Below are positions 7,017 to 44,637 of a DNA stretch of 64,000 nucleotides, piece after piece; within the stretch, counting starts at the first letter, position 1; each line of letters opens with the position of its first letter. A program made the position numbers and the translations under genes. The notes beneath the pieces were generated by a model that saw only the letters and a program-made list of their open reading frames with translations, made no database searches and had not been told where the DNA came from. Source of the stretch: Methanothermococcus sp. Ax23 (GTDB lineage: Archaea > AGJL01 > Methanococci > Methanococcales > Methanococcaceae); assembly GCF_049075655.1 (NCBI RefSeq), contig NZ_CP157522.1, forward strand, positions 480,001-544,000, given 5' to 3'.

Positions 7017-7390
7017 GATAAACCGCCGAGAAAGCCAACGATTTTAATCGTTATACAAAACATAGTTTTGTAAAATCTCTTATGAGATTGGATGAGAGGC
7101 GGACATTATATCGGCTAGTAAGTAGTAAAATATAAATATGTGAAGATTAGTAGTAAGTAACGCTACCAGTCCAAGTATCTATGGGTAGGGTTATCGAAAA
7201 CTCTACCGCTGGTAGTGTTTGGAAGTTCAAAAGGTAGCCCTGAATCTCCTAAACGGGGATAGGGGTAGTGGGTTTGGCCACCGTGTAGGGTTAAACCCTA
7301 CTAAAATTAGACGAAATCACTTCGTGATTTCGTTGCTCGCTTACTACCGTAAGCGAGAACCCAACGAGTTCACTCGTTGGAGTAGGTCAG
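7017..7390 (+). mobile_element. Non-autonomous IS200/IS605 derivative, family 1 copy A (no tnpA/tnpB)
   Basis: Near-identical to 44127-44498 and inverted 35860-36234; left-end hairpin aaaccgcc..ccaacg/cgtt..gg..ggcgg after TTTAC; right-end hairpin ccaacgag-ttca-ctcgttgg ending TCAG; no target duplication. Confidence 0.85.
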
Positions 7391-7394
7391 ATTA

Positions 7395-8063
7395 TTATTT
7401 TATTAATTCATTCCTTGTTTTTTCAATAAATTCGATGATTTTATCAATTCCTTCATCATTTTTTATTGAGGTCAATAATACATCCATATTGTCGTTTAAT
7501 TGTTCTGCATCATTTTTCATCTTTACAGGGTCAGCACCGACGGCGTCTGCAATATCTATTTTATTTATAATAGTCAAATCTGCGGTTTTAAATATCATAG
7601 GATGCTTTTCAACTGTGTCGTCTCCTTCTGTAACGCTGACAACCACTATTCTTTTATGTGTTCCCAAATCAAAATCAGCAGGACATATCAGGTTTCCAAC
7701 ATTTTCTATAAATAATATATCGATATTGTCCAAATCTAAGTCCGGTAGAGCATGTCCAACCAAATGTGCATCCAAATGACATTCTTTTCCAGTATTCAGA
7801 GGTATAACCTGAACATTGTGATTTTCCATTCTTTCTGCATCGTATTTTGCCACTACATCTCCTGCAATACAGCCTATATTATATTTGTCCTTTAAATTTT
7901 CTATCAATTTTTCTATTAAAAGGGTTTTTCCACTTCCCGTTGCACCCATAAAATCAAAGGCAACTACATTATGCTGATTTAATAATTTTCTATTTTTATC
8001 GGCATGTTTTTTGTTTGCTTTTAGTAAATCTTTTCCTATATCCAATACACTAACAAAATGCAT
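7395..8063 (-). CDS. hypB: Hydrogenase nickel incorporation GTPase HypB
   Basis: GSGKT, CHLDAH, ENVGNLICPADFDLG, NKID; start at MHFVS behind GGTGAT. Confidence 0.95.
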   Translation of the reverse strand: MHFVSVLDIGKDLLKANKKHADKNRKLLNQHNVVAFDFMGATGSGKTLLIEKLIENLKDKYNIGCIAGDVVAKYDAERMENHNVQVIPLNTGKECHLDAHLVGHALPDLDLDNIDILFIENVGNLICPADFDLGTHKRIVVVSVTEGDDTVEKHPMIFKTADLTIINKIDIADAVGADPVKMKNDAEQLNDNMDVLLTSIKNDEGIDKIIEFIEKTRNELIK

Positions 8064-8427
8064 ATCATCACCCAAGTTATTTATTATTCCCAAATTGGAA
8101 ATAATGATATTAAAACTTATTTATTACAAACATAAATAATAGGATGAAGTTAAAATTGTTAATATATCATGATTAATATATTATTATGAAGTAATATCAT
8201 CATAATAATTAAATAATAACATTGTGAGGCGTAGGTTAATTATTCTTTTCATGGAATTCTATAATTCAATAATAAATATAATTTAATAGGTGAAAATATA
8301 TAAATATATTGTGGTAATGAAAATGTATATATAAATGAAAATTAGTAATATCTTTTAGGGACAAACATTGGATATAATATTGTAAAATTTATATTTAATT
8401 AATTTACTTTTTAATTTTGGTGAAATA

Positions 8428-9006
8428 ATGAATTATATGGACATATTTAAATTTAGCCCCGAGGAAATTAAGGATTTAACTATTTCAACCTTTGCCATTG
8501 CATTAATATTCGCATGGTATGGCAGAGGAATACCCCATATAGATTCTTGGTTTATATTGCAGTTCTTGATAGCAAGTTTTACGGTTGGGAGTGGATTTAT
8601 ATTGCATGAGCTCGCCCATAGAACAGTGGCTCGTCATTTTGGAGCATGGAGTGAATTTAGAGCATGGTATGAAGGATTGGTTATTGCATTGGTATTGAAA
8701 ATAATAATGGGCGCTACTTTTATAGCCCCTGGTGCAGTTTATATTTATAAAGATTATCTAACCACAGAGGAAAATGGACTTATATCCATTGCAGGACCTT
8801 TAACAAATGTTGCCTTGGCATTTGTGTTTTATATATTAAATATTCCACTAATATCAAGTTTAGGTTTCCATGTTAATTTATTCCTTGCAGCATTTAACAT
8901 GATACCAATCTACCCACTTGATGGAAACAAAGTTCTAAATTGGAATCCTTTAATATGGGGCGTTGTGGCTATTCCTTTATTTTTATGGGCGTTGGGAATT
9001 TTTTAA
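8428..9006 (+). CDS. Site-2 protease family (M50) intramembrane metalloprotease
   Basis: HELAH, AGP..N, FNMIPIYPLDG. Confidence 0.9.
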   Translation: MNYMDIFKFSPEEIKDLTISTFAIALIFAWYGRGIPHIDSWFILQFLIASFTVGSGFILHELAHRTVARHFGAWSEFRAWYEGLVIALVLKIIMGATFIAPGAVYIYKDYLTTEENGLISIAGPLTNVALAFVFYILNIPLISSLGFHVNLFLAAFNMIPIYPLDGNKVLNWNPLIWGVVAIPLFLWALGIF

Positions 9007-9065
9007 ATCTTATCCTATTTCATTCTAAATATTCATTAATCATTAAAAAATAAAAAGTTGAAAAT

Positions 9066-9644
9066 ATGAGATATACAATTACAATCATTGGATTATGCAT
9101 CATAATATATTTATTTGGATTATTTTCCAACAACTTAATATATCTATTATTATTTAATCCGTATTATGCCCTAAACATGCCATGGCAGTTTATAACGAGT
9201 ATATTTGTCCATGCAAATTTTATGCATTTGTTTGTCAATATGTTTGTATTATTTTTCTTTGGCATAAAACTTGAAAGATGGGTTGGTGGGGCAAATTTTA
9301 TAAAAATATTTTTCATATCAGGTATTGTTGGAAACATTGCATATCTCCTATATTCCGATTTTACCAATCTATACATTCCGGCTTTGGGTGCATCAGGTGC
9401 GGTTAGTGGTATCTTAGGAGCTCTCACAGTTTTAGAACCTAACATGAGAATTATGATATTTCCATTTCCAGTTCCCATAAAACTCAAAACTGCAACAATA
9501 TTATTTGCAGGATTTGGAATATTATGTCTTATGTTCTCAATATTGCCAACAATAGGACATGCGGCTCATCTTGGAGGGTTATTCACGGGCATGCTATTTG
9601 GAAAAATATTTAAAAGGAAAATGAACTACCCATCATATTACTGA
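9066..9644 (+). CDS. Rhomboid family intramembrane serine protease
   Basis: PWQFITS.F.H..HL..NM, GASGA, AHLGG. Confidence 0.9.
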   Translation: MRYTITIIGLCIIIYLFGLFSNNLIYLLLFNPYYALNMPWQFITSIFVHANFMHLFVNMFVLFFFGIKLERWVGGANFIKIFFISGIVGNIAYLLYSDFTNLYIPALGASGAVSGILGALTVLEPNMRIMIFPFPVPIKLKTATILFAGFGILCLMFSILPTIGHAAHLGGLFTGMLFGKIFKRKMNYPSYY

Positions 9645-9673
9645 CCATTATATCTATTAATTTTGGGGATAGT

Positions 9674-10372
9674 ATGGAATTTGAACTTTGGATAAGGATT
9701 ATAAAGGAAAGTATAGACAAAAGGAACATAGAACCTTGGAACATCAATATCGCAGAAATAACCGATGAGTATATCAAAACAATTAAAGAGCTTAAAAAAT
9801 TCGATATACGGCTATCCGCAGATGTTATTCTCGTTGGTGGAATATTATTACGGATGAAATCTCAGATACTTTATGGAGAATGCGAAAATACATTTAATGA
9901 AGATGAGGAGTTTGAGGAGGAGTTCCCTGAAAATTATGATGAATATGATGAATATGAAGAAAACTACGATAATGATGTTATTGTAAATACTGTCAAAGAA
10001 AATAAAAATAAGGGTGATACCACTACTAAAAATACTAAAAGCAAGCAAATAACATTTAACGATTTAATTAACACTCTAAAATCAGAGCTTAAAAAGGTTA
10101 AAAAAACCAAAACAAGACCAAAAAATAAAAGAGAAACTCCAATTTATAACATTATAGAAGAAATGGAAGAAGAATATGACATTTCTGATTTGATGGAAAA
10201 TTTAATGTCTGAACTTAAAAAAGAAGGGGAGCTCATATATCAAAATAAGTTTTCTAACAGAAAAGATATTGTAAAAAATTTCTTACCTTCCCTTTATCTT
10301 GCAAATGATGGTAAAATTGAAATTTTTCAGGAAGACATCTTTAAGGACATAGTTCTTAGATGCAAAAATTAA
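9674..10372 (+). CDS. scpA: Segregation and condensation protein A (kleisin)
   Basis: PWNINIAEITDEY..LLRMKS N-terminus, acidic linker, FLPSLYL..Q..F..I C-terminal winged helix. Confidence 0.85.
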   Translation: MEFELWIRIIKESIDKRNIEPWNINIAEITDEYIKTIKELKKFDIRLSADVILVGGILLRMKSQILYGECENTFNEDEEFEEEFPENYDEYDEYEENYDNDVIVNTVKENKNKGDTTTKNTKSKQITFNDLINTLKSELKKVKKTKTRPKNKRETPIYNIIEEMEEEYDISDLMENLMSELKKEGELIYQNKFSNRKDIVKNFLPSLYLANDGKIEIFQEDIFKDIVLRCKN

Positions 10373-10593
10373 ATATTATTGTATTTATTTATTGTTAATT
10401 ATCAATATTATATTTTATATTTTTAGTCAGTATATTACTACATTACTATATTCATGTATATCGTAGTGTTTTAAAACAACACATCTCAGTAAGATTTATA
10501 TAGAAGTTCATAATCATATACATACCGTTAGAGTAGATACTAAACAATTATGGGATTATTAATAAAAAATATTAAAAAAATTGAGGTGATGGC

Positions 10594-12228
10594 ATGGCAG
10601 CAGGTCAGCCAGTAGTTGTATTACCAGAAAATGTAAAAAGATACATGGGAAGAGATGCTCAGAGAATGAACATATTAGCAGGAAGAATCATTGCTGAAAC
10701 CGTAAGATCCACATTGGGACCAAAGGGAATGGACAAAATGTTAGTTGATGATTTGGGGGACATTGTTGTTACAAACGATGGTGTAACAATCTTAAAAGAA
10801 ATGAGTGTAGAACACCCAGCTGCAAAAATGTTAATCGAAGTTGCAAAAACCCAAGAAAAAGAAGTTGGGGATGGAACAACAACAGCTGTTGTTATATCTG
10901 GTGAATTATTAAGAAAAGCTGAAGAATTACTTGACCAGAATGTTCATCCAACAATCGTTATCAAAGGATACCAGTTAGCACTTGAAAAAGTTCAGGAAAT
11001 ATTAAAAGACATTGCTATTGAAGTAAAAGCTGACGACAAAGAAATGTTAAAGAAAATAGCAATGACATCAATCACAGGAAAAGGTGCTGAAAAAGCTAAG
11101 GAAAAATTGGGGGACATAATTGTTGAAGCTGTATCAACAGTTGTTGATGAAAACGGTAAAATCGATAAAGATTTAATAAAAGTAGAGAAGAAAGAAGGAA
11201 CATCCGTTGATGAAACAGAATTAATCAGAGGAGTATTAATCGATAAGGAAAGAGTAAATCCACAGATGCCTAAGAAGGTAGAAAATGCAAAAATTGCATT
11301 GTTGAACTGCCCAATTGAAGTTAAAGAAACAGAAACAGATGCTAAAATAAGCATAACAGACCCTGCAAAGATGATGGAATTCATCGAACAGGAAGAAAAG
11401 ATGTTAAAAGACATGGTTGATGAAATAAAAGCATCTGGTGCAAATGTTGTATTCTGTCAGAAAGGAATTGATGACTTAGCTCAGCACTACCTTGCAAAAG
11501 CAGGAATCCTTGCAGTAAGAAGAGTTAAAAAATCAGACATAGAAAAACTTTCAAAAGCAACAGGAGCAAACATTATTACAAACATAAAAGACTTAACAGC
11601 AGACGACTTAGGAGAAGCTGGACTTGTATCAGAAGAGAAAGTTGCTGGCGACGCAATGATATTCGTTAAAGAATGCAAGCATCCAAAAGCAGTAACAATC
11701 TTAGTAAGAGGAACAACAGAACATGTTGTAGATGAAGTAGCAAGAGCTATCGATGACGCAATAGGCGTTGTAGCATGCACCATAGAAGATGGTAAAATCG
11801 TTGCTGGTGGTGGAGCAGCAGAAGTAGAATTAGCTATGAGATTAAGAGACTACGCAGACACAGTAAGCGGAAGAGAACAGTTAGCAGTTAGAGGATTTGC
11901 TGACGCATTAGAAGTAATCCCAAGAACATTGGCAGAAAATGCTGGTTTAGATGCTATCGAAATGCTCGTAAATCTCAGAGCTAAACATGCAACAGATGGA
12001 AGCTCAACATATGGATTAAATGTATTCACAGGCGAAGTTGAAGACATGGCTGAAAATGGAGTTGTTGAACCATTGAGAGTTAAAACACAAGCTATCCAGT
12101 CAGCTACTGAATCAGCAGAAATGTTATTAAGAATAGACGATGTAATCGCAGCTGAAAAATTGAGCGGTGGAGCTGGCGGAGATGCTGGTGACATGGGCGG
12201 AATGGGAGGTATGGGCGGAATGATGTAA
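10594..12228 (+). CDS. ths: Thermosome (group II chaperonin) subunit
   Basis: [26 protein letters not shown]-repeat tail; TTTATATA box at about 10495. Confidence 0.97.
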
Positions 12229-12323
12229 GCCCCCATCCCATTACTTTCTTTTTTAGAAAAATATATTTATAAATTTAAATAAACTATATAAAAAAGGATA
12301 ATAAAATAAGAATAATAAATTAT

Positions 12324-13646
12324 CTAATATCTCTCAATTCCTCCTATATTTTTCACAACTTCCAAAAATGATTCTTCCAATGCCTTCAAATCATCTTTTT
12401 TATAGGAGTATATTCTAAATGTAATGCTTTTAAATCCATTTTTAATATTACTTCCTTCATATACATCTATAATTTCAATATCAAACATGCAGTTCAATAA
12501 TTTCAAAATAATGTCTGGATTCACTTCTTTTTTGAATAATACGGATATATCATAATAATATTTTTTTAAATTTTGTTCTTTCCATTGTTTTAATTCCTCA
12601 TCATCCATTAAAATTACATTTGCCACATTAATTTTTAAATCCTTTCCATTTTTATCTATAATTACAAAATCATCAACAATATTTTTTACAATCCCAAAAT
12701 GAACTTTATTTGAATATACATGCCTTAATCCAATTTCTTTACCTGTTGATTTTTTAATTCTCTCGATTTCTTCGGTAATTGCACCAACTGCCTTATTTGA
12801 GTAATTCATACCCCTGATGGTTTCATTTCCAAAGTGTTTAGCAGCTTCTTTCATTATATTTGCAAATGATTCTCTGTCCTTTTTTTCCACTACCTGTTTT
12901 ATGTTATTACATTCTTTTATAAATGTTTCATGAATATGTTTTATTTGTGGATTGTGCATCTGAATATCTGCATATAAATAAGGATTCTGACCAATAATCC
13001 TTGCTATGATATTTATCATGAGCTCATATATTGGTGAGGCATATTTTCTTGATTCTTTAATATTTATGTCCAAGTCCTTCAATGTTGCACCAAGAGTGAT
13101 ATAGGCATAATGGGTTAAACCTTGAACAACACCCATAATCCTGTCGTGCTTCTCAGGAGGTATTACAATAACCCTTGCCCCTTCTTTTTCAAGGAAATTT
13201 TTTATTTTATCGAACCATGGATTATTTTTATGCTTTTCGGAGGGCGTAAGTATTACAACCTGTCTTTTTAATGAAGGAGTAGCTGGCCCAAACATTGGGT
13301 GGGTGGGAATCACACAAACGCCATCTTTTGCATATTTTTCCATGGCTCTTGATGGAATTTCTTTTATTGATGTGATATCCATCAAAACACAATTTTCCCG
13401 CACGTGTGGAGCTATTTCTTGAATAACCCTTTCAGTAATGTTTATGGGAACTGCAACCATTACTATGTCCCCAATTTTAGAGGCTTCAATATTGTCGTTG
13501 GTGTATTTTACACCCAATTCTTTTTCAACATTTTTACCTTTTACCACATCTCTTCCGGTAACTACTACATCAAAACCTTTATTTTTTAAAAATCTTGCAA
13601 ACCATTTTCCTAGTCCATCCGTTCCGCCGATTATAGAAATTATCAT
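12324..13646 (-). CDS. tyrA: Prephenate dehydrogenase with C-terminal extension
   Basis: IIGGTDGLG Rossmann, DITSIK, HPMFGP, HDRIMGVVQGLTH. Confidence 0.92.
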   Translation of the reverse strand: MIISIIGGTDGLGKWFARFLKNKGFDVVVTGRDVVKGKNVEKELGVKYTNDNIEASKIGDIVMVAVPINITERVIQEIAPHVRENCVLMDITSIKEIPSRAMEKYAKDGVCVIPTHPMFGPATPSLKRQVVILTPSEKHKNNPWFDKIKNFLEKEGARVIVIPPEKHDRIMGVVQGLTHYAYITLGATLKDLDINIKESRKYASPIYELMINIIARIIGQNPYLYADIQMHNPQIKHIHETFIKECNNIKQVVEKKDRESFANIMKEAAKHFGNETIRGMNYSNKAVGAITEEIERIKKSTGKEIGLRHVYSNKVHFGIVKNIVDDFVIIDKNGKDLKINVANVILMDDEELKQWKEQNLKKYYYDISVLFKKEVNPDIILKLLNCMFDIEIIDVYEGSNIKNGFKSITFRIYSYKKDDLKALEESFLEVVKNIGGIERY

Positions 13647-13748
13647 AACAATTCCTTCATGTGTTTTTATAATTATTAATAATACTCATAATGATACCTA
13701 TAATAATACCTATAATATGTATTGTATTTTTATATTTATAATGGCATG

Positions 13749-13765
13749 ACCAAAAAGTTTATATA
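13749..13765 (+). promoter_or_regulatory. BRE/TATA promoter of tRNA-Cys
   Basis: ACCAAAAAGTTTATATA matches the Methanococcus stable-RNA promoter consensus upstream of the tRNA. Confidence 0.7.
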
Positions 13766-13812
13766 TTAGAATTGTATTTTTAATGTATGGAATTAATAAC
13801 ATGTATTAATGT

Positions 13813-13886
13813 GCCAGGGTAGTCTAGTCCGGCGAGGCAGCGGACTGCAGATCCGCTTCAGAAGGGTTCAAATCCCTTCCCTGGCT
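13813..13886 (+). tRNA. tRNA-Cys(GCA)
   Basis: Cloverleaf gccaggg/ccctggc, anticodon arm gcgga-ctGCAga-tccgc, GGTTCAAATCC T-arm. Confidence 0.95.
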
Positions 13887-13904
13887 TTTCTGAAAGAATG
13901 TGAA

Positions 13905-13941
13905 GAAATCAAGCAAATCTCGAAAGAGATTTGCGAGATTT
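13905..13941. repeat. Short palindromic module downstream of tRNA-Cys
   Basis: aaatc..gcaaatctc-gaaa-gagatttgc..gattt hairpin. Confidence 0.6.
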
Positions 13942-14184
13942 TATTTTTATATGGTAATATCGATTAATTTAAATATATTATTATAAGTTTAAGGCTCTTT
14001 CGACTATGGCTTAACCTTTTTAAAGAGTGTATTTAGATTTACAATTTTAATATTATTCATAAGTATTAATTAAATTAATACAGGACATAATATTTTTTTT
14101 AGGTATATTGATACCTTAAATCAAATCGATAAGTTTTTATATTATTTTATAAAATAAATTTATTACAAAAATTGAGGTGATATA

Positions 14185-15249
14185 TTGAAAATCGCTATAT
14201 TGGGAGCAGGATGTTATAGAACACACGCTGCATGTGGTATTACAAACTTTTCAAGAGCAGCAGAAGTTGCAAAAGAAGTGGGAATACCTGAAATCACAAT
14301 GACACACTCTACAATCACAATGGGGGCTGAATTATTACATTTAATCCCAGAAGTTGATGAAGTTGTAGTTTCTGACCCTTGCTTTGCAGAAGAGCCAGGA
14401 ATCGTCGTAATTGACGAATTTGACCCAAAAGAAGTTATGGAAGCTCACCTAGCAGGAGAGCCTGAAAAGGTAATGCCTGCTATTAGAGATGCTGTTAAGG
14501 CTAAGGCAAAAGAACTTCCAAAACCACCAAAAGCATGTATTCATTTTGTCCATCCAGAAAAAGTTGGATTGAAAGTAACCTCTGACGATAGAGAAGCAGT
14601 AGCAGATGCAGATATTGTAATTACATGGTTGCCAAAAGGGGGAAGCCAGCCAGCAATTATTGAAAAATTCGCAGATGCTATAAAAGAAGGAGCAATTGTA
14701 ACACATGCATGCACCATCCCAACACCAAAATTCGCAAAAATTTTCAAAGACTTAGGAAGAGAAGATTTAAACATCATTTCATACCACCCAGGAGCAGTTC
14801 CTGAAATGAAAGGACAGGTATTCTTATCAGAAGGGTTTGCATCAGAAGAAGCTGTTGAAAAACTCTACTGTATAGCAAAAACCGCAAGAGGAACTGCATT
14901 CAAAATGCCTGCAAACTTAATCAGCCCTGTATGTGATATGGGTTCAGCAGTTACTGCACCAGTTTATGCGGCAATATTAGCATACAGAGATGCAGTTACA
15001 AACATATTGGGAGCTCCTGCTGACTTCGCTCAGATGATGGCAGATGAAGCTATCACACAAATGTTGGAATTAATGAGAAAAGAAGGCATTAGAAACATGG
15101 AAGATAAATTAGACCCAAAAGCTTTAACTGGAACAGCAGACAGTATGTGCTTCGGTCCATTAGCAGACATCCTTCCATCAGCATTAAAAGTTCTTGAAAA
15201 ACATGGTAAAGATGACAAATGCGATTGTGGATGTAATATAAAACCATAA
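14185..15249 (+). CDS. hmd: [Fe]-hydrogenase (H2-forming methylene-H4MPT dehydrogenase)
   Basis: KIAILGAGCYRTHAA..GITNF, HACTIPT (Fe-ligand Cys), VCDMGS; TTG start after GAGGTGA. Confidence 0.97.
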   Translation: MKIAILGAGCYRTHAACGITNFSRAAEVAKEVGIPEITMTHSTITMGAELLHLIPEVDEVVVSDPCFAEEPGIVVIDEFDPKEVMEAHLAGEPEKVMPAIRDAVKAKAKELPKPPKACIHFVHPEKVGLKVTSDDREAVADADIVITWLPKGGSQPAIIEKFADAIKEGAIVTHACTIPTPKFAKIFKDLGREDLNIISYHPGAVPEMKGQVFLSEGFASEEAVEKLYCIAKTARGTAFKMPANLISPVCDMGSAVTAPVYAAILAYRDAVTNILGAPADFAQMMADEAITQMLELMRKEGIRNMEDKLDPKALTGTADSMCFGPLADILPSALKVLEKHGKDDKCDCGCNIKP

Positions 15250-15357
15250 TCATTTTCGTTGCTCACAGATTTGTGATTGCACGGCAATATACTTTTTTAT
15301 TTTATTTCCTTTTTATTTTTACTAATGAAAACTATAATTTACAGTTTTGGTGATGCA

Positions 15358-16389: not shown

Positions 16390-16421
16390 AATTATGCAAT
16401 ATAATAAAAATAAGGGGGATT

Positions 16422-17761: not shown

Positions 17762-17782
17762 TTAAAACAAAAAGGTGGTGTA

Positions 17783-33911: not shown

Positions 33912-34046
33912 ATTCTTTAACTTTTTTCTTTTTTTATTTAATAATATATTTATTAATTTAAATAATTAGATTAAAATTTTTAAATAATAATGCCCATAAT
34001 GAGAAGAATCTCATTAAAAGTGAAAAAAACGATATAGATAAATTAC

Positions 34047-34253
34047 TATAAACCGCCAAGAAGGTTCCAACAGCTTTTAGCTGTTGGACGAAAGGCGGTC
34101 ATTATATGAAAATAAAATATAACCAGTCCAAGTATCTATGGGTAGCGTTTGTAAATACTCTACTGTCTCAGAGTTTGGAAGTACATAAGGTAACCTTAAC
34201 CTCCTAATGAAGATAGGAGTAGTAGGCTTGGTAATTTAATAGGGTTAAAACCC
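34047..34253 (+). mobile_element. Diverged, 3'-truncated family 1 IS200/IS605 derivative (copy D)
   Basis: TTAC then tataaaccgcc..ccaacagc/gctgttgg..ggcgg left end; shares accagtccaagtatctatgggtag with copies A-C; right end absent. Confidence 0.78.
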
Positions 34254-34254
34254 A

Positions 34255-34330
34255 TAGCGGGGCGAAGATTTGAACTTCGGATCTCCGGGTTATGAGCCCG
34301 GCGGGATGGGCCTGGCTACCCTACCCCGCT
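34255..34330 (-). tRNA. Initiator tRNA-Met(CAT)
   Basis: A1-U72 pair, anticodon arm ccggg-ctCATaa-cccgg with three G-C pairs. Confidence 0.95.
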
Positions 34331-34417
34331 TCTTTTAACTTACTCGCAAAATAAAGAAGTAATATGTAATATATAAAGTTTATTGTTATGTGGTATAATT
34401 AAGCACAACCGTATCTA

Positions 34418-34603
34418 TTATTTAAAAAACATCATACCAACATAAATCGCCAATATTATCAGCATCATAAGAAAAAACATCTGCTGACTTCTAACCATTT
34501 TTTTTCTCTTTTTTAAATATTCTTCTTTGCATTTCTCAGAGCAGAACACTTCCTCAGGCGGAATAGATATTCCACAATTTAAACAATGTTTATGTTTTTC
34601 CAT
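34418..34603 (-). CDS. DUF2116 family Zn-ribbon membrane-anchored protein
   Basis: HKHCLNCGISIPP..FCSEKC plus C-terminal TM helix. Confidence 0.85.
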   Translation of the reverse strand: MEKHKHCLNCGISIPPEEVFCSEKCKEEYLKKRKKMVRSQQMFFLMMLIILAIYVGMMFFK

Positions 34604-34625
34604 AAAATGTCACCAAAATTACTTA

Positions 34626-35309: not shown

Positions 35310-35480
35310 ATTAAGACCTCTATATTAATTTGTAAATAAATATAAAAGTTAAAATTAATTTCTAAAAATTTTATAAACTAATATTATATAAATTATACAC
35401 TCATAACATAAAAATAAGTATCAAATTCTGGAAAAATAATAAAAATAGAAATAAAAATTAATTAGATAGATGCAAAGTAA

Positions 35481-35684
35481 TTACATTTTTAATGCCATTT
35501 TTACATCTTCAGCTTTTACTGTTTTTCTACCAGCATGTTTTGCTAATTCTGCGGATTCTTTTGCAATATCCATTGCAATGTCTTCTAATGCTTCAACTAA
35601 TACCTTAGCTGCTTCTTCACTTACTCTTTCAGCACCTGCTTTTTTTAATATTCTTACTACTGGTGCAACTGGAAGTTCTGCCAT
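35481..35684 (-). CDS. Archaeal histone (HMf family)
   Basis: [29 protein letters not shown]. Confidence 0.96.
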
Positions 35685-35859
35685 CATATCACCTCAGGGT
35701 TTTGTATTTTTAAATTTAGAAAAAGATATATATAAATCTTTCGGAAATAATCCATATTTAATCCTACATTCATCATATATGAACTACCCATTATTTGATT
35801 ACATATATTCAAGCACTGAGTCAATTAATTAATCAATAACATAATAATAACACGTCCCC

Positions 35860-36234
35860 CTGACCTACTCCAACGAGTGAACTCGTTGGGTTCTCGCTTA
35901 CGGTAGTAAGCGAGCAACGAAATCATGAAGTGATTTCGTCTAATTTTAGTAGGGTTTAACCCTACACGGGTGGCCAAGCCCACTACCCCTATCCCCGTTT
36001 AGGAGATTCAGGGCTACCTTTTGAATTTCCAACCACTACCAGCGGTAGAGTTTTCACTAACCCTACCCATAGATACTTGGACTGGTAGCGTTACTTACTA
36101 CTAATCTTCACATATTTATATTTTACTACTTACTAGCCGATATAATGTCCGCCTCTCATCCAATCTCATAAGAGATTTTACAAAACTATGTTTTGTATAA
36201 CGATTAAAATCGTTGGCTTTCCCGGCGGTTTATC
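35860..36234 (-). mobile_element. Non-autonomous IS200/IS605 derivative, family 1 copy B
   Basis: Reverse complement of 7017-7390 with few substitutions; preceded by TTTAC, ends TCAG. Confidence 0.85.
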
Positions 36235-36305
36235 GTAAAGTCATGGATATATTTTTATAAATTCATGTCGGTATAATAAATAGAGCATAATATTGTGGTG
36301 ATACT

Positions 36306-36869
36306 ATTAACATTAACAAAAAATTCAATAAAAAGGAGATAATTGAGTGGGCAGTTTTTTTAATTGTGCTCTTAATAGTTTGGACCCATGTAAATGTTGT
36401 TGTGTCCAACAGCATGTATCCTGTGATGGAGAGGGGAGATTTTGTAATCGTAGAAAATGCAAATTGGGAATTCAACCCAAACGATGTTCAGGTTGGAGAT
36501 ATTGTTGTATATAAAGCGCACTGGCCAAACTATAGGGAAAATAATATGGAATATATGACCAAAATAGACAATAAAACATTAATTGCATTTAACGGAAATA
36601 AGGTTAAACCAGTAATACATAGAGTTATTGAAAAAATAGAACTTAATGGTAATATTTATATTATAACAAAAGGGGACAATAACCCCACTTATGACCCGGA
36701 GCTCATATCCATAAACCAGATAAAACAGAGAGTTGTGTCGATAAATGGAAAACCGCTGGTAATTCCGCATATTGGATATATCTCAATATTACTAAAAGAA
36801 TACATATGGTTGGTAATATTGATAATTATAGTATGGTATGCCTACGATTATTTAAAAAAGAAAAAATAA
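36306..36869 (+). CDS. Signal peptidase I (S26B type)
   Basis: VVVSNSMYP.M.RGD, VIHRV, TKGDNN, IP.IGY; probable ATT start at 36306 behind GGTGAT (track start 36366). Confidence 0.9.
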   Translation: MNINKKFNKKEIIEWAVFLIVLLIVWTHVNVVVSNSMYPVMERGDFVIVENANWEFNPNDVQVGDIVVYKAHWPNYRENNMEYMTKIDNKTLIAFNGNKVKPVIHRVIEKIELNGNIYIITKGDNNPTYDPELISINQIKQRVVSINGKPLVIPHIGYISILLKEYIWLVILIIIVWYAYDYLKKKK

Positions 36870-36919
36870 GTAGAGAAAACAACATTAGGAATAATAAAAA
36901 GAAAATAAAAAGAAAAAAT

Positions 36920-38098
36920 TTAAATAATCTCTTTAAAGTATTTTAACAATGAAGGTGCTTTTCTTACTGCCTTAAATGCTATCTTTTTTACATCTACTTC
37001 TTCTAACTTTTCATCCATTGCATCAGCAAGTGCATTTAATTCCTTTTCAGTTAATTTTTGAAGAACATTTTTATATTTGAGCTCCGCCATTAAGATATCA
37101 TAATATTTTTCCTTCCATTTATTTTCGTATTCAATTAATGCGTCTTTGGAATAATTATTATTTTTAATACTTTTTGCCGCCACTTCACCAGCCATGGAAC
37201 CACAACTCATGGATAAATAGATTCCTCCACCAGACAATGGACTTATCTGTCCTGCGGCATCTCCAACAACCATAATATTATCATCCACAGTTTTTTCTAT
37301 TGGTCCTCCAACAGGAGCTCCCCCACATTTAAATTCGATTGGAGTAGCATCTTTTAATCTTCCTTCCAATATAGGATGCTCTATAAATTCATTCAAATAA
37401 TCTATTGCCTTTTTATTCTTGTCGATAACACCTAAACCAACATTTGCAGTATCTCCCTTAGGGAATATCCAAGCATACCCTTTTGGACATATCTCTCCAA
37501 AATAGAATTCCATCATTTCATTATCTAGCAATTTAACATTTGTCATTTCATATTCTGCACAGGAACATACCTGAGTTGGAATCTTTTTGGACTTTAAACC
37601 TGCCATTTCAGCAACAGAACTTTCAACCCCATCTGCTGCTATAACAATTTTTGCTTTTACAGTATATTCCTCTCCAAGATGATTGACCATTACGTCATAT
37701 CCATCGCCGTTATGTTCCAAGCCCACAACTCTACTTTTAACTGCCACCTTTGTTCCCGCTCTTGCACTCCTTATGGCGAGATATTTGTCAAATATCTTTC
37801 TTTCCACAATATATCCGTCCGTTTTTCCTCCTTTAACCTCTATTTTTTTACCATTTGGAGCTATTAAATATCCTCCTTTTATGTAGTTTCTCACAAACTG
37901 CGGGTCCGGCGATATTCCAAAATCTTCCAACCTCGGAACTGCCTCTGCACACCTTACGGGCTCACCAATTTCCTGAGATTTTTCAATTAAAAGTGTTTTT
38001 GCTCCATTTTTAGATGCATAATATGAAGCCATACTTCCTCCGGGTCCTGCACCAACCACAACCACATCATACTCAGCATTATTTATTAACTCTCTCAT
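36920..38098 (-). CDS. Digeranylgeranylglycerophospholipid reductase
   Basis: [34 protein letters not shown]. Confidence 0.92.
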
Positions 38099-38099
38099 A

Positions 38100-38264
38100 T
38101 TATTCCTCCAATGCATTTAATGGACATACTATCATGCACGATTTGCAGCTATTACATTTTTCAGCATCTATAACAATTGTATTTTCTATCAACTCTATTG
38201 CGAGCTTATTGCACACTCCTACACAGGCTCCACAATATCCACATTTTTCATGATTCACTTTCAT
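38100..38264 (-). CDS. 2x[4Fe-4S] ferredoxin, likely partner of the reductase
   Basis: [11 protein letters not shown] and [12 protein letters not shown]; abuts the reductase start. Confidence 0.9.
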
Positions 38265-38404
38265 AACTATCACTTTGATAATTAAATACACATATAAAAA
38301 TAGCTATTATTTCTTGTATTAAATTATATTTATAGATATTTAACATAATTTTTTATTATGTTATGATATTATATATTATTTAAAAAAGATATATCCTATT
38401 TTTA

Positions 38405-39073
38405 TTAAAATTCTATATTCTGGTTATTTGCCAATCGCGGAACCATAGCCATTAACACTGCATTTTCACATAAATCCATTCGGTTAATACCGCCATTGGT
38501 TAAATATCCAATTATTCCTTCTTTCTTTCCTATATTTTTTACATTATATATTTTTTCAGCCACAACCCCACATTCCTCTCCATGTTTCATTTCTTTAACG
38601 AGCTCCGCTGGCACTTGAAATCCCTGCGAAGTTCCAATGGTATAATTCAATCCATCAAAAATGGCACAAACATGAACATCTAAATATTTTCCACCGATTT
38701 CAACAAGACCTGCCTCTATACCAATTCCATACAGTGAAGGTTTAGCCTCAAATGCATATTTTGCCCTATTTATGGCTCCTTTGGCTGTCTCATCAAATCC
38801 TATTGGCTGTTTTGATACTCCACTATCGGCATCAACCCCCACCACAAGAACACTTCCTATTGTTTTTTCCATTGCCAACTCAACAGCCTTAACTTTAACA
38901 GGATTTTCACTTCCAACAGAAACCACTCTTAATTTATGCCCTGCTGGACCTCCTCTTAATAATTTTGCCTTCTCAACACATTCTTCACTACCACACACAA
39001 AACTTCCAAAAAGGTAGGTTATTGCAGGAGCTCCGCATATATCACATTTTTTATTTTCAAACATCTTTACCAC
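38405..39073 (-). CDS. yjjX: Inosine/xanthosine triphosphatase with N-terminal Cys4 extension
   Basis: VGSENPVKVKAV, SGVSKQP..ET..GA.NRA, GIEAG, G.IGYLT.G...R. Confidence 0.88.
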   Translation of the reverse strand: MVKMFENKKCDICGAPAITYLFGSFVCGSEECVEKAKLLRGGPAGHKLRVVSVGSENPVKVKAVELAMEKTIGSVLVVGVDADSGVSKQPIGFDETAKGAINRAKYAFEAKPSLYGIGIEAGLVEIGGKYLDVHVCAIFDGLNYTIGTSQGFQVPAELVKEMKHGEECGVVAEKIYNVKNIGKKEGIIGYLTNGGINRMDLCENAVLMAMVPRLANNQNIEF

Positions 39074-39119
39074 TTATTTAATTTATTATTATCATTAAGT
39101 TATTATTTATTTTATTAAT

Positions 39120-39827
39120 TTATTTGTTATCCACTACTACTTCCACACCATATCTTATTACATTGTTTTTTCTTAAATATGTCCTATATTCTGCAATTTT
39201 ATAGGGCATCTCCATTATATTTTTTGAATAATTAGAATCCATTGTAAGAGTATTTAAAAAACTTCTTAAATCATTTGGCGATTTTATATCGTATATATTC
39301 TCTGCACCGCTTGAAATTACAACGGGAGTATCGTATTTTTTTGCGAGAAATAGGTTTCTTCTAAATGCCCATAAAATTCTTGCCCTCTCGTAATATTTCT
39401 TTTCCAATAAACTCTTAAAATTCAGTTCAATTGCTACCCTGTGGGAGCTCCCCAATCTTGCAAGCACATGGTCAATACCATTGTCTCTTCTGTTTAGTTC
39501 TGGCGTGGATAAAATATCCACATCGTGCATTTCTAATGCCTTTCTACTAATTTTTATAACTCCACCTTCCACAAGTATAATATCCACTTTATTCCTATAC
39601 TTTTTAACAACCTTTGATAACTCCTTTGAAGATTTTGATGGTATTTTTATTCCAGAATATATTCTTAAACCGTGTTTTTCACCATACTCCTTAACACATT
39701 CTAATTTTTCATTGTCATATCCATCATGATGCTGAACAGCAACTGAACCATACCATCCCAACTCTTTAAGTAGTTTAATGCCTTCTTCATCAAATATGTG
39801 ATTGATATCTACGGGTTTAGTTATCAT
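39120..39827 (-). CDS. rnp3: Ribonuclease P protein component 3 (Rpp30)
   Basis: V.GG..R.A.E..VDIL..PE..G.DHVLAR..VAIE..SSGA..P.DL. Confidence 0.9.
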   Translation of the reverse strand: MITKPVDINHIFDEEGIKLLKELGWYGSVAVQHHDGYDNEKLECVKEYGEKHGLRIYSGIKIPSKSSKELSKVVKKYRNKVDIILVEGGVIKISRKALEMHDVDILSTPELNRRDNGIDHVLARLGSSHRVAIELNFKSLLEKKYYERARILWAFRRNLFLAKKYDTPVVISSGAENIYDIKSPNDLRSFLNTLTMDSNYSKNIMEMPYKIAEYRTYLRKNNVIRYGVEVVVDNK

Positions 39828-40005
39828 AATATCCTCTTCAAAACTGATGGAAAAATAAAATATAAAATAAATGAAAATAAAAAAGGAAGGATAATTTAAT
39901 ATATATTATATGTTTAAAAGCCATTAAAGCCATTTAAAATAAATATTCATGATTTATATAGTCTCCGAAATTCTAGATGTCGTATGCCCACCTATAAATC
40001 TGATA

Positions 40006-40305
40006 TTAATACTTCATCCTATCTTGGGGAGTTCTCACTTCCTCAATTATTCTTTTTCCTGCGGCAACTTCATCTATACTATGTATTACACCGTTCATTG
40101 ATTCTATTATTTCTTTTATTGGCTCATACTGTAAATCCATCCCTTCAATGGTAATTTTAATATTTTCTGTGGATTTATCTATTTCATAAACGGTAATATT
40201 TACACCATCTACTTCATTTAATGCACACAATTTTACCGCTAAATCCGTTAATTTGGGCTCATGTGTTTTTAAAACGTCCAACACTATTCTTCTTAGTCCC
40301 GGCAA
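40006..40305 (-). CDS. DUF211 family protein
   Basis: LRRIVLDVLK.H.P..GVNITV.EID..IHSIDEV. Confidence 0.88.
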   Translation of the reverse strand: MPGLRRIVLDVLKTHEPKLTDLAVKLCALNEVDGVNITVYEIDKSTENIKITIEGMDLQYEPIKEIIESMNGVIHSIDEVAAGKRIIEEVRTPQDRMKY

Positions 40306-40454
40306 TTTCTACTCCTCCAATTCAGTTATATATTATTTATTAATAAAGTATTTAATTTGATATATATAGTTAATGCAAACTATAAATTAATTTTTAAACA
40401 TCGATTGGTAAGTAATAATTATACCTTAAAAAGGGAATGGAGAATTATTTGTTA

Positions 40455-41408
40455 TTAATCTCCTTTTAACATTCCAATTTTAGCAAGTAATGCACTGAGC
40501 TGTATTCTTTCATTTGCCCCTTCCACTATTCTAAAATCACATTCTCCAATTGCTTCAACGAGAGATACCTTTTTTCTTTCTTCAATATCTAAATTAGGAA
40601 TCTCCCTAAACATCTGTAATAGTATGTCTTCTCCACTCATTCCCCAATCAATCATTAAGTTATATAGGAGCTCTCTTGCTTCAATGAATTTGTTGTTTAG
40701 TGCGAGCTCTACCATTTTTATAATCTCATCTGGTCGTGCCTTTGATGATACTTTATAAACTACTTCATCATCGATATTTTTTGAAACTGTTGCAGCGGTT
40801 TGCAATACGTTTATAGCCTTTCTTAAATCCCCTTCTGATACATAGATTATTGCATCAATACCGCTATCATCAATGGTAATATTTTCATTTTCTGCAATTT
40901 CTTTAAGTTTTTTTATAATATCTTCCCGTTTCAGTGGTGAAAACCTAAATATAGCACATCTTGATTGTATCGGAGGAATAATACGGCTTGGAAAGTTGCA
41001 ACTAAGGATAAATCGGCATATATCGGAGTATTTCTCCATAGTTCGCCTTAATGCGTTTTGAGCATCGCTTGTAAGGGCATCGCTTTCATCCAAAAATATT
41101 ATCTTAAATGGTGCATCCCCAATTGGCTTTGTTCGTGCAAAATCCTTTACCTTTGTTCTTATTACATCAATACCTCTTTCATCCGAACTGTTTAATTCTA
41201 AAATATTGTCTCTCCAATTTTCACCAAATAAATCCCTTGCAAGACATAATGCCGCAGTCGTCTTTCCAACGCCGGGCGGACCGCTAAATAGCATATGCGG
41301 CATGGATTTCTTTTTTACATAGTTTTTAAGCCTTTTTATAATTTCATCATGCCCTGTAATTTCATCCAATGTTTTTGGACGGTATTTTTCTACCCATGGT
41401 TTTTCCAT
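40455..41408 (-). CDS. rfcS: Replication factor C small subunit, intein-free
   Basis: PWVEKYRP, GPPGVGKTT, DESD, AQNALRRTME, SRC. Confidence 0.97.
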   Translation of the reverse strand: MEKPWVEKYRPKTLDEITGHDEIIKRLKNYVKKKSMPHMLFSGPPGVGKTTAALCLARDLFGENWRDNILELNSSDERGIDVIRTKVKDFARTKPIGDAPFKIIFLDESDALTSDAQNALRRTMEKYSDICRFILSCNFPSRIIPPIQSRCAIFRFSPLKREDIIKKLKEIAENENITIDDSGIDAIIYVSEGDLRKAINVLQTAATVSKNIDDEVVYKVSSKARPDEIIKMVELALNNKFIEARELLYNLMIDWGMSGEDILLQMFREIPNLDIEERKKVSLVEAIGECDFRIVEGANERIQLSALLAKIGMLKGD

Positions 41409-41452
41409 ATTTTCACCAAATGGTTATTATAGATTATAATATTATTTTACCA

Positions 41453-42553
41453 TTATTGGAATGCATACTTTAAAACTTCACCAAATCTTGATTTTACAAC
41501 AGTTCTTTTTCCCAAAACTTTTGCATGAGCATCCAATTCAATAATGCCATAGTCATAAACTTCCTTTATTGGATGATATAATCTTGGACCGTCGCTTATG
41601 CCAATAGTTATTACATCTTTATTTATTTCTTTCAACTCTTCGATAGGAAGTGCATGGGGAACTCCTGAAACTACAACAATATCGGGATTGATTTCCTTCA
41701 AAATATCGACAGCTTTTCTCCCAGTAACTGGATATTCATCCAATCCACCAGTGATGTAATCAATTGTTATATTATTTTTTGAATATTCATTTAATATATT
41801 TTCTGCATCTTTTCTAATTTTTTCAAATCCTATGTTTTTATCTAAATTTGCTATATTTATAACATCATTTTTATTATTATGTTTATTAATCTCAATTAAT
41901 GGGTGAGCAAATAAGTATGCAGTTTCTTTTTTTGCATTTAAAACGCAGGCGATTTTTAAATCTTTATCCGCAGTTATTAAATTTATTACCTCATCTAAAT
42001 CATCTTCGTAGGTTGGTTTTAGATATCTACTTTTAGCCATACCTCTGGTTTTTTCAACCTCGGTGGCTTTTACAAGCATTTCTTTCTGCCTATTAAATTC
42101 TTTTTCATCAATTATCCCTAAACTTAAACAGCTCTCCATGGTTTTAATAGCTCCAATGGTGTTGTCATTCATTCCGCTATGAACTTCAACTGGAATAATC
42201 ACAACATCCTCATGACTCTCATAATCATCAACTGGGGCGTATAAATCTTCCCCAATTATCATACTCGGGCACGTCCCAACAATACCTATAACATATTTAT
42301 TTTTTTCCGCCTTGTTTTTCTTTAAATAATCTATTACCTCCTTTATTGCATTGCTTAATTTTTCCTGAGCTCCGAATATAAAATCATTCTCATCCATTGC
42401 TGTAGTAAAAACTCTTACTCCGTCTAGTTCTAAAAGTCTTGCAGTTCTAAAACAACAACCGCTTGGTCCGTGCATGATTATAGCATCAACGCCTATATCT
42501 CTTAATTGATACATAGATGCTGCTATTGGTGATGGTCTTGGGTGCATTATCAT
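41453..42553 (-). CDS. cfbD: Ni-sirohydrochlorin a,c-diamide reductive cyclase catalytic subunit (F430 synthesis)
   Basis: HPRPSPIAA..HGPSGCCFRTARLLE.DG, VGTC.SMIIGEDL (NflD family). Confidence 0.93.
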   Translation of the reverse strand: MIMHPRPSPIAASMYQLRDIGVDAIIMHGPSGCCFRTARLLELDGVRVFTTAMDENDFIFGAQEKLSNAIKEVIDYLKKNKAEKNKYVIGIVGTCPSMIIGEDLYAPVDDYESHEDVVIIPVEVHSGMNDNTIGAIKTMESCLSLGIIDEKEFNRQKEMLVKATEVEKTRGMAKSRYLKPTYEDDLDEVINLITADKDLKIACVLNAKKETAYLFAHPLIEINKHNNKNDVINIANLDKNIGFEKIRKDAENILNEYSKNNITIDYITGGLDEYPVTGRKAVDILKEINPDIVVVSGVPHALPIEELKEINKDVITIGISDGPRLYHPIKEVYDYGIIELDAHAKVLGKRTVVKSRFGEVLKYAFQ

Positions 42554-42622
42554 TTTATCATCCTTTTAATCTTTCTTAGAAATAACTAAAATAAAAATAA
42601 AATAAATAATGATTAAATCACA

Positions 42623-43651
42623 TTATGGCTTTAATCCGCCATATAATAGTGATTCTGTTTCATCAAATCCGGCCATTAAATTCATATTATGAACTGCCTG
42701 ACCACTTGCCCCTTTTACAAGGTTGTCTATTGCTGAAACTACAACAAGTCTGCCGTGCCTATCCACTTCAAATCCTCCAATGTCGCAGAAGTTTGAACCT
42801 CTAACTCCTGTCAATGTAGGAGCTCCCTCATCAAATATTCTTACAAATGGTTCATTTTTATAGAATTTTTCATAAATGTCGATTATCTGTTCCCTGCTAA
42901 CATCCTCTTTTAAAAATGTGTGTGCAGTTGTTAATATCCCCCTAGTAATTGGTGCAAGATGTGGTGTAAATGACAATTTTATGTTTTTGTTGGTTAGTTT
43001 TTCCAGTTCTTTCTCTATTTCTGGGCTGTGCCTGTGAGTTGTTATTTTATAAGGGCTTATGTTCTCATTTACATTTGGAAAATGGGTAGTTTCTGATGGA
43101 TTAACCCCTGCACCGCTCACACCAGTTTTTGAATCAACAATTATCCTATTTTCTATCAAATCCTCCTTTACAAGTGGGGCTAATGCTAAAATTGAGCCAG
43201 TTGGGAAGCATCCAGGGTTTGCTACAAGTTTTGCTTTTTTAATGTCTTCCCTGTGGAGCTCAGGTAATCCATATACTGCATCAAGTTTTCCCGTATGTTC
43301 TAAATTATACCACTCCTCGTATGTGGCAATATCTTCAAATCTGTAATCTCCACTTAAATCAATAATCTTCATACCTTTTTCATACAATTCGGGCACTATT
43401 TTCATTGAAGCACCGTGTGGTGTTGCACAAAATACAAAATCGGAATCAATATCCTCAGGAGGGATATTCTTAAATGTCATATTATCAAGGTTTTTGATAC
43501 ATTTCAAATTTGGATGTAGTTTTGTTATTTTTACACCATCCATTTTTCGTGAAGTGATATATTTTATTTCAACTTCTGGATGATTTGAAAGTATTCTTAA
43601 TAATTCGCTCCCTGTGTATCCTGTTCCACCAATTATTGAAACTGTTATCAT
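42623..43651 (-). CDS. argC: N-acetyl-gamma-glutamyl-phosphate reductase
   Basis: [32 protein letters not shown]. Confidence 0.96.
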
Positions 43652-43670
43652 TTAATCACCATACTGTTCA

Positions 43671-44637
43671 TTATTTTTTATCTTTTATTTCCCTTATTAA
43701 ATCAATTACACATTTAACTTTTTTATTTTTTATAATTATACTATCGGATGTTGTCACTACCTCTTTATTCATTAATATGTAATCGCAATTTTTCACACAA
43801 AAAACTTTACCATCGATATTATATTTTTCCATCAAATTTCTTATTTTTTTGGAGAACTCCCCACTTTTTGACACTTGGGCATCAAAATAAAATATTGGTT
43901 TTATATCATACTTTTTAAATAATCCCATCAACAAATTTAGAGCTCTTTCAGTATCTGAGTTAATTTTGTAATTTCCGTAAATTCCCATAAAATCCCTGTA
44001 AATTCCATCATCGCATAAAACTACATTATTTTTTAAAAGTGCTTCAATTCCAATTAATACATTATATCCATCAATATTTAGCTCCTTATTCGATAATTTT
44101 TCAATATCTATTAATTTATTTTTTACGATAAACCGCCGGGAAAGCCAACGACTTCAGTCGTTATACAAAACATAGTTTTGTAAAATCTCTTACGAGATTG
44201 GATGAGAGGCGGACATTATATCGGCTAGTAAGTAGTAAAATATAAATATATGAAGATTAGTAGTAAGTAACGCTACCAGTCCAAGTATCTATGGGTAGGG
44301 TTAGTGAAAACTCTACCGCTGGTAGTGGTTGGAAGTGCATAGCGTAGCCCTGAACCCATTAATGGGTAGGGGTAGTGGGCTTGGCCACCCGTGTAGGGTT
44401 AAACCCTACTAAAATTAGACGAAATCACTTCGTGATTTCGTTGCTCGCTTACTACCGTAAGCGAGAACCCAACGAGTTCACTCGTTGGAGTAGGTCAGAG
44501 ACAACATTCAAAGCATAATCCTTTTTATATCCTCTGTTTATCAAATATCTAAAATCCTTTTTAGCATCCTTTATTTTTACGCTAATTTCTTTATTTAGTT
44601 TAGCACCTATTTTTTCGTTTATTTCTTTATGGGACAT
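43671..44637 (-). pseudogene. DUF434-family protein gene interrupted by the element at 44127-44498
   Basis: 5' part D..YLINRGY..ALNVV (44637-44499); 3' part VKNK..IDGYNVLI..CDDGIYRD..FDAQVSKSG..TSDS (44126-43671). Confidence 0.85.
44127..44498 (+). mobile_element. Non-autonomous IS200/IS605 derivative, family 1 copy C
   Basis: Near-identical to copies A and B; TTTAC 5' flank, TCAG 3' end. Confidence 0.87.

Follow-up and report, generated by a model that had tools for sequence, protein, structure and literature searches.

Guide-RNA loci that carry neither an effector nor a transposase gene are already known as stand-alone omegaRNAs, which are mobilised and act in trans, and whose biological role is called unknown in the available text of Altae-Tran et al. 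(2023, PNAS, PMC10691335). Here and below, statements on cited papers refer to the portions of each that were accessible. Palindrome-associated transposable elements (PATEs), IS200/IS605 derivatives without genes in which the left end is fused to the right, often encode omegaRNAs on which TnpB must act in trans, as set out in a preprint on G. stearothermophilus and its PATE-like elements (Meers et al. 2023, PMC10055086). A PATE-derived RNA, VNG_R0052, is expressed in Halobacterium, PATE cases are also reported from Haloquadratum, and the sense overlapping transcript RNAs (sotRNAs) of the same study are linked to HgcC (Gomes-Filho et al. 2015, PMC4615843). Published work thus already covers both stand-alone omegaRNAs and PATEs that TnpB serves in trans, and the idea pursued here is not new in kind. 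We analysed a 64,000-nucleotide stretch of the archaeon Methanothermococcus sp. Ax23 (contig NZ_CP157522.1, positions 480,001 to 544,000, or G000:C1:480001-544000; hereafter the window), from a 1.663-Mb genome (with an additional contig of 7.7 kb; G+C content 32%), in which a short gene-less element, hereafter the cassette, recurs. An earlier reading of the same DNA (the original prediction) had taken it for a mobile guide-RNA cassette served by proteins encoded elsewhere. We consider it probable that the cassettes are non-autonomous IS200/IS605 elements with a promoted guide-RNA gene, the RNA of which would be loaded by TnpB in trans.

The cassettes resemble stand-alone omegaRNAs in being guide-RNA scaffold loci without effector or transposase, in genomes that also hold effector-bearing loci. 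They differ in being archaeal, in having a TATA box at a fixed distance, in an extra 5' hairpin taken from the middle of tnpB (stem A) and in a strong placement bias; stand-alone omegaRNAs are said to act in trans, whereas for the cassettes this activity is predicted. With PATEs they share the fusion of a left and a right end around no gene, but VNG_R0052 is a 99-nt fusion of two ends, whereas the cassettes of this genome measure 283-405 bp and hold a full scaffold together with stem A. They also carry a conserved box, whereas no classical promoter of B recognition element and TATA box (BRE-TATA) was found for the Halobacterium sotRNAs in the accessible part of that study. In the omegaRNA of ISDra2 the scaffold likewise overlaps both the 3' end of tnpB and the right end, the flank is the guide, and the bases just before the guide pair ~100 nt upstream, forming a pseudoknot (Nakagawa et al. 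2023, PMC10097598). This pseudoknot resembles the guide-adjacent long-range helix of the cassettes, which is known here from covariation only and not from a solved structure. The two RNAs have no detectable sequence similarity, and the 5' region of the ISDra2 RNA is disordered and dispensable, whereas the 5' element of the cassettes is a conserved, covarying hairpin. A literature search, which did not cover supplementary lists, returned no description of this cassette family in Methanocaldococcus and its relatives, nor of promoter-bearing TnpB MITEs (transposable elements of the miniature inverted-repeat kind); the fixed promoter geometry, stem A (also conserved inside tnpB) and the strong orientation bias were not found in print either.

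The window contains three full copies of 374, 375 and 372 bp (Table 1), with 98% identity to copy 1 for copy 2 and 94% for copy 3. TTTAC stands directly 5' of each, the first bases are GATAAACC, the last bases are GGTCAG, hairpins lie subterminally at both ends without terminal inverted repeats, and the three 3' flanks are unlike one another. The original prediction had described these near-identical copies, their target motif, TCAG terminus, subterminal hairpins and differing flanks, together with the lack of a target duplication and a TATA-like box at 7131, and all of this is borne out by the sequence, by the flanks of the wider family and by the sites of a related species (see below). The diverged partial copy that it had placed at 34047 is also present: it has retained the left end together with stems A and B, ends at about element position 282 at a tRNA-Met gene (34255-34330, minus strand) and receives 56.5 bits from the RNA covariance model R1 (G000:C1:514124-514239). 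The claim that the copies hold no tnpA or tnpB open reading frame (ORF) stands with one correction, as a 186-aa ORF (7219-7779, plus strand) begins within copy 1 and extends into the flank. We treat this ORF as spurious, because it is antisense to a Pfam-supported CobW/HypB-family gene and because the differing flanks preclude its sharing among copies.

A BLAST search of the genome with copy 1, which had been proposed as a check, followed by inspection of the element ends, gave 28 gene-less copies and nine tnpB-bearing elements with the same ends. With this many copies and relatives the pattern is a repeat family far beyond chance. TTAC lies 5' of all 37 elements (TTTAC in 30, ATTAC in 6 and CTTAC in 1), all 37 end in GTCAG, and the 3' flanks differ among elements, those of the 28 gene-less copies being mutually different without exception. 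The median pairwise identity among copies is 0.944. Fifteen gene-less copies are full (369-405 bp), three are without element positions 37-71, six without positions 290-340 and three without both. The remaining cassette (G000:C1:1542609-1544034) is interrupted by an insertion of ~1 kb between element positions 109 and 99. In the tnpB-bearing elements, which are ~1.4-1.6 kb long, tnpB is intact in two of nine (408 and 420 aa) and broken in the other seven. Both intact proteins match PF01385, PF07282 and solved TnpB/Cas12f chains, and by our reading IDLG, GELN and NADING would represent the three RuvC motifs. As an observation on the flanks, the first 16 nt 3' of a gene-less element (G000:C1:1132537) and of a tnpB-bearing one (G000:C1:131954) agree at 14 positions while their 5' flanks are unrelated; by a rough estimate the chance of such a match among all element pairs is ~0.01-0.02.

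Pairwise alignment of the cassette onto the intact full-length element F1300k gives a simple derivation. Cassette positions 1-100 equal the left end of the parent (window 7017..7116 corresponding to positions 1-107 of the tnpB-bearing element), 101-151 form a linker with the TATA-like box, 152-194 equal parent positions 572-614 within the tnpB ORF (43 nt, stem A), 195-211 are a short linker, and 212-374 equal parent positions 1306-1469, which comprise the last 26 tnpB codons and the right end. On this alignment the cassette is an internal-deletion derivative of a tnpB-bearing element, made by two internal deletions. Stem A, which lies ~690 nt upstream in the parent gene, is the sole internal tnpB segment that the cassettes retain. 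The family consists of non-autonomous IS200/IS605 elements of the PATE/MITE type, with a short insertion motif, no target duplication and ends shared with tnpB-bearing elements, as the original prediction had proposed. It had also proposed that an omegaRNA-type right-end scaffold is retained behind the TATA-like box, and this agrees with the alignment: as in stand-alone omegaRNAs, the scaffold is the tnpB 3' end plus the right end, with a variable flank directly after it.

Sites without the element, another check that had been suggested, are available from a congeneric species (G016), which lacks it at all three window sites and shows no target duplication at any of them. At the copy 1 site the flanks are contiguous, with the element absent to within 2 nt and nothing duplicated, and the copy 2 site is element-free with the junction CACCT/GTAAA and again no duplication. 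The copy 3 site differs in that G016 and a further genome, G010 (L174, L175), hold 77-79 nt with TTAC at both borders in the cassette's place, which suggests an insertion with an adjacent deletion between two TTAC sites, without duplication. We infer from these sites that the cassettes were probably mobile in the past. Long-term retention of an orthologous cassette at one site in two species was considered for a cassette of G022 and rejected, as the orthologous site in G021 is empty; for a second site the two flanks are on separate contigs.

The promoter-like box has a fixed position. In all 28 cassettes of this genome the sequence (T/C)ATAAATA (TATAAATA in 23 and CATAAATA in 5) precedes stem A at a distance of exactly 22 nt from its first base. 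Among 16 cassettes from two other genera, 13 have a TTTATATA-like box at 22 nt and 3 have one at 23-27 nt, and the segment between box and stem A is not conserved. Archaeal TATA boxes lie ~26 nt upstream of the transcription start, and by this textbook distance transcription is predicted to start at stem A's base, near 7161 of copy 1. The case for promoter activity, which we regard as likely on these grounds, thus draws on the conserved geometry and not on the box sequence.

Structure of the putative RNA is indicated by folding and by covariation. From stem A to the right end the cassette folds at -102.5 kcal/mol (z = -7.7 relative to shuffles). Among 26 distinct sequences of the family (23 from this genome and 3 from genus g4), paired cells make up 99.3% and both sides are altered in 16 of 47 pairs, a value reached by 0 of 500 shuffles, while slid controls gave 1-4 pairs. 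Across three genera (21 sequences, four helices) the share of paired cells is 98.5%, and in 13 of 33 pairs both sides are altered, with 0-3 pairs in slid controls; this count excludes the right-end hairpin and stem C, because both are out of register between genera in the alignment. In the long-range helix, UGGC(C/G/A), which comes just behind stem B, pairs with (G/C/U)GUCA, the final bases ahead of the flank. The helix is paired in 100% of cells, and its fifth pair is GC in 12, CG in 7 and AU in 2 of the 21 sequences. Six pairs are predominantly G-U, so the structure is compatible only with the tnpB-sense strand. Covariation therefore supports stem A, stem B and the guide-adjacent long-range helix across three genera, and the stems that had been named from the window alone do exist and covary.

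Stem A has a counterpart within the ORF of tnpB-bearing elements, at about residues 135-160. Its closing stem there is 9-13 bp long and varies in sequence between families and genera while complementarity is retained. In the tnpB of G029, by our reading, synonymous 5'-side changes have matching 3'-side counterparts that replace amino acids (T to A, M to V), and the hairpin is apparently maintained inside the tnpB frame at a cost of amino-acid changes. Our guesses at its role are that it is a hairpin protecting the 5' end or a signal for TnpB recognition or processing. Pairing of the stem A bulge with the region after stem B was also considered and dropped, given that inspection of the alignments by eye gave no consistent covariation.

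For expression, four metatranscriptome contig sets from one study were mapped onto window positions 6800-7600. Summed contig depth in run X1 was 300-600 over the left end, 81 over the linker (7097-7150), 430 over 7151-7177, 1100-1800 over 7178-7285, 5900-8100 over 7313-7393 and 6-10 past 7394, values to which DNA in the libraries possibly, other organisms and the copy number of the repeat contribute and by which parts of the gene cannot be ranked. Contigs of this kind cannot reveal RNA starts, ends or levels, and their little or nil cover outside the element within the mapped stretch is uninformative either way.

Cassettes take a preferred position and orientation relative to genes, as scored with crude ORF calls (at least 110 aa, overlaps pruned). 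An opposite-strand ORF lies on the guide side in 25 of 28 cassettes, at a median of ~20 nt, and reads into the cassette right end in 9 cases. The share expected from intergenic TTAC, TTTAC or TTTTAC sites is 0.49-0.55 (binomial p 8e-6 to 1.4e-4), or 0.52 when 114 genes ending in G-TAA are added (p 2.9e-5). Only one of the nine tnpB-bearing copies is placed antisense to a gene end (Fisher p 3.5e-5 versus the cassettes). The same placement is found in 12 of 15 scorable cassettes of other genera, a further one having no ORF to score. Pfam matches are present in 25 of the 28 guide-side ORFs, which have no common theme, and at least two of these genes, for a molybdopterin oxidoreductase and SfsA, are truncated by the insertion. 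The orientation bias is consistent with an outward promoter being selected against where it points at gene starts, and this would indirectly support an active promoter. A replication-strand bias was rejected as its cause, as plus- and minus-strand copies are intermixed along the chromosome (no formal test). When second targets of the guides were sought, 16-mers with at most 2 mismatches occurred elsewhere at about the chance number, none of them after TTAC among the matches listed.

Insertion exactly at a G/TAA stop was considered as a rule and rejected, as it occurs in 3 of 28 cassettes here (p 0.19, not significant); across genera the count is 6 of 43, with p 0.027, a rough value obtained by applying the null of this genome to other genera. 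In the three cases of this genome (G000:C1 1132537, 557341 and 1283296) the terminal CTGA, the reverse complement of TCAG, gives a new in-frame TGA, and the genes lose nothing and may change their last residue. Three cassettes of other genera have the same 4-nt overlap at a gene stop.

To map the distribution we searched 40 genomes of the class with a covariance model of fused stem A and stem B. It matches 13 of them, and full-length fused cassettes are present in 9 genomes from three genera: 28 in this genome, 2 in G022, 1 in G021, 6 in G029, 3 in G036, 3 in G039, 2 in G035, 1 in G024 and 1 in G033. All 16 inspected cassettes of other genomes are gene-less; 15 have a recognisable left end, and these are 287-493 bp long, stand after TTAC (one after ATAC) and end in GTCAT. 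G029 and G039 possess a cognate TnpB (65-70% identity), and that of G036 is broken. In G036 a CRISPR array of six repeats (L099 700-1084; Rfam CRISPR-DR13) lies ~350 nt from one cassette.

Matches to PF01797 occur in 3 of 23 genomes of the taxonomic family. In G021 an intact 143-aa tnpA lies directly upstream of a tnpB that carries a homologous stem A and right end, and this element is an autonomous IS605-type relative. Its tnpB frame (L091, G021:C103, reverse strand, ~1740-1760) breaks at an A7 run upstream of stem A. We considered a programmed frameshift and rejected it, as it would need a +1 shift and a homopolymer error or a pseudogene is simpler.

A link to the Rfam families sot0042 (RF02656) and HgcC (RF00062), both RNAs of IS1341-type tnpB 3' ends in archaea, had also been proposed, and for it there is sub-threshold support in relatives only. 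Related cassettes match sot0042 at 34.9 bits (E 1e-5; gathering score 88) and HgcC at 32.2 bits (E 6e-4; gathering score 50), both below threshold. Among the window copies no such match was found: the Rfam scan of the window at gathering scores returned only tRNAs and 5S rRNA, and a permissive scan of 6900-7500 with E up to 10 gave no match to sot0042 or HgcC. A snoR12 match in that interval (E 3.9) was dismissed as chance.

In the mechanism we propose, each copy retains four parts: both transposon ends, as needed by a Y1 TnpA, a TATA-type promoter, a structured RNA gene of ~230 nt and a flank that would be its guide. Transcription would begin at the base of stem A, and the RNA would span the omegaRNA-type scaffold (stem B, the guide-adjacent long-range helix, stem C and the right-end hairpin) and continue into the flanking DNA, which would be the guide. 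The two intact full-length copies would supply the TnpB that loads this RNA in trans. The transposon-adjacent motif (TAM) of a TnpB is identical to the target motif of its TnpA; after TnpA excision, TnpB would cut the emptied site, TTAC plus flank, and recombination with another genome copy would restore the element. Carrying the RNA would in this way help a gene-less copy persist.

Several points weigh against this proposal. A PF01797 (Y1) profile search of this genome gave no match, and tblastn with the G021 TnpA gave only a 23-aa C-terminal match (65% identity, E 0.009, G000:C1:947365-947430), which looks like the vestige of a lost tnpA and lies directly upstream of a tnpB of another family. 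Given that there is no TnpA gene in the genome, the cassettes are probably immobile, or stranded, now, and the homing cycle cannot run at present. The earlier expectation that both TnpA and TnpB are encoded elsewhere thus holds for TnpB, with two intact genes between the same ends, and fails for TnpA. The original interpretation as a whole is partly supported. Moreover, G022 and G024 carry cassettes without a cognate TnpB (best matches 31% and 26% identical), the element yields no Rfam match at or above a gathering score, and stem A has, as far as checked, no counterpart in described omegaRNAs. The box of this genome is weak on its own, A/T-only octamers being common in AT-rich DNA, and the contig depth pattern, from one study's contigs, is a weak hint of cassette transcription and not proof. 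Lastly, the covariation could largely be inherited from tnpB-bearing masters and not selected in the cassettes.

Alternatively, the cassettes could be inert deletion derivatives, with ends kept for TnpA, hairpins and a TATA-like box that are functionless leftovers, and any RNA being noise. The missing TnpA gene and the broken tnpB in seven of nine full-length copies would fit, as would the persistence of variants without 37-71 or 290-340 and a transcription that is unproven; moreover, the copies are young (median identity as above), so conservation within the genome says little. We nevertheless regard inertness as unlikely. The architecture and the 22-nt box spacing are kept in three genera despite unalignable linkers, stem A and the long-range helix covary although neither is a subterminal transposase hairpin, the structured segments are precisely what both deletions leave intact, and the orientation bias is unlike that of the tnpB-bearing copies, which use the same target motif. 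Another explanation is that the cassettes act, or have been co-opted, as outward promoter or antisense-RNA modules at gene 3' ends, with or without TnpB. It would account for opposite-strand ORFs at 25 of 28 guide sides, where about half are expected and tnpB-bearing copies show 1 of 9, for the similar placement of 12 of 15 scorable cassettes in other genera, for Pfam matches in 25 of the 28 ORFs and for persistence in G022 and G024, which have no cognate TnpB. Yet the neighbour genes are without a common functional theme, at least two insertions truncate genes, and the cassettes are not at orthologous sites in related species. The bias is also explicable by the selection described above, part of it stems from the target, as GTAA (the complement of TTAC) contains the common stop TAA, and the ORF calls are crude; hence, we find this explanation highly doubtful.

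A further reading, which we hold to be quite improbable, is that of a self-promoted RNA gene family, in which the 5' hairpin would be functional in both tnpB mRNAs and cassette RNAs, for example as a TnpB-recruiting or processing signal, and antisense docking would serve RNA-guided or antisense control of neighbour genes. If true, such control would enable cassettes to survive where the cognate TnpB and TnpA have been lost from the genome. The reading that we prefer, of non-autonomous elements with a promoted guide-RNA gene for TnpB in trans, builds on the anatomy, copy number, target motif, parent, empty sites, structural covariation, promoter geometry and intact tnpB genes observed here, from which cassette transcription, TnpB loading, cleavage and homing would follow.

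Table 1 Features of cassette copy 1 and of the other copies in the window (window coordinates)
Feature	Position	Strand	Basis or remark
Copy 1, gene-less IS200/IS605 cassette	7017..7390	+	Genome-wide copy comparison; orthologous G016 site without element
Target motif TTTAC (core TTAC), predicted TAM of cognate TnpB	7012..7016	+	TTAC before 37/37 elements
Left end with subterminal hairpins	7017..7116	+	Alignment to F1300k
TATA-like box TATAAATA, 22 nt before stem A	7131..7138	+	Conserved spacing; putative promoter
Stem A	7161..7217	+	Covariation; homologous to parent 572-614 in tnpB ORF
Stem A parts: 10-bp closing helix; 13-nt 5' bulge; inner hairpin	7161-7170/7208-7217 (closing helix); 7184-7191/7200-7207 (inner hairpin)		
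Stem B	7237..7266	+	Last tnpB codons in parent; 4-5 of 10 pairs altered on both sides
Long-range helix, 5' strand UGGCC	7275..7279	+	Pairs with 7385-7389
Stem C hairpin	7285..7301	+	Fold and alignment
Optional double-hairpin module, ~50 nt	7306..7356	+	Missing from 9 cassettes; also dispersed alone
Right-end subterminal hairpin	7361..7380	+	6/8 pairs altered on both sides
Right terminus GGTCAG; GGUCA is 3' strand of long-range helix	7385..7390	+	Ends and covariation
Predicted guide of copy 1 (flank)	7391..7410	+	Position only; antisense to 3' end of gene 7395-8093 (minus strand)
Copy 2	35860..36234	-	TATA box 36120-36113; predicted start ~36090; predicted guide 35859-35840; absent at G016 site
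Copy 3	44127..44498	+	TATA box 44241-44248; predicted start ~44271; predicted guide 44499-44518
Old diverged fourth copy, without right end	34047..34254	+	After ATTAC; abuts tRNA-Met

Outside the cassettes, the double-hairpin module occurs alone in at least nine other places (G000:C1 1266043, 1048244, 1043329, 1276528, 1012397, 1541075, 1419587, 1263378 and 550773), inside broken tnpB copies and in the stem A loop of cassettes from other genera. Its first hairpin is conserved and its second variable, and it may be a minimal mobile hairpin element. Two other repeats were seen in the window: an exact tandem duplication at 45328-45959 with a 332-nt unit (tRNA-Asp, 5S rRNA and tRNA-Lys), beside tRNA-Tyr, tRNA-Pro and tRNA-Thr, and two 263-nt direct repeats, 71% identical, at 57513-57775 and 58196-58458.

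If neither the hairpin nor the placement is functional, the cassettes are an ordinary, well-preserved PATE family. The family is a clean natural test case for the role of stand-alone omegaRNAs, because the predicted RNA start can be checked, intact cognate TnpB genes are present in the genome, and there are relatives with and without TnpA and TnpB. The covarying hairpin shared by tnpB and the start of the cassette RNA, together with the strong antisense placement at gene ends, could be relevant to the making and loading of guide RNAs and to the way in which such elements establish themselves in compact genomes.

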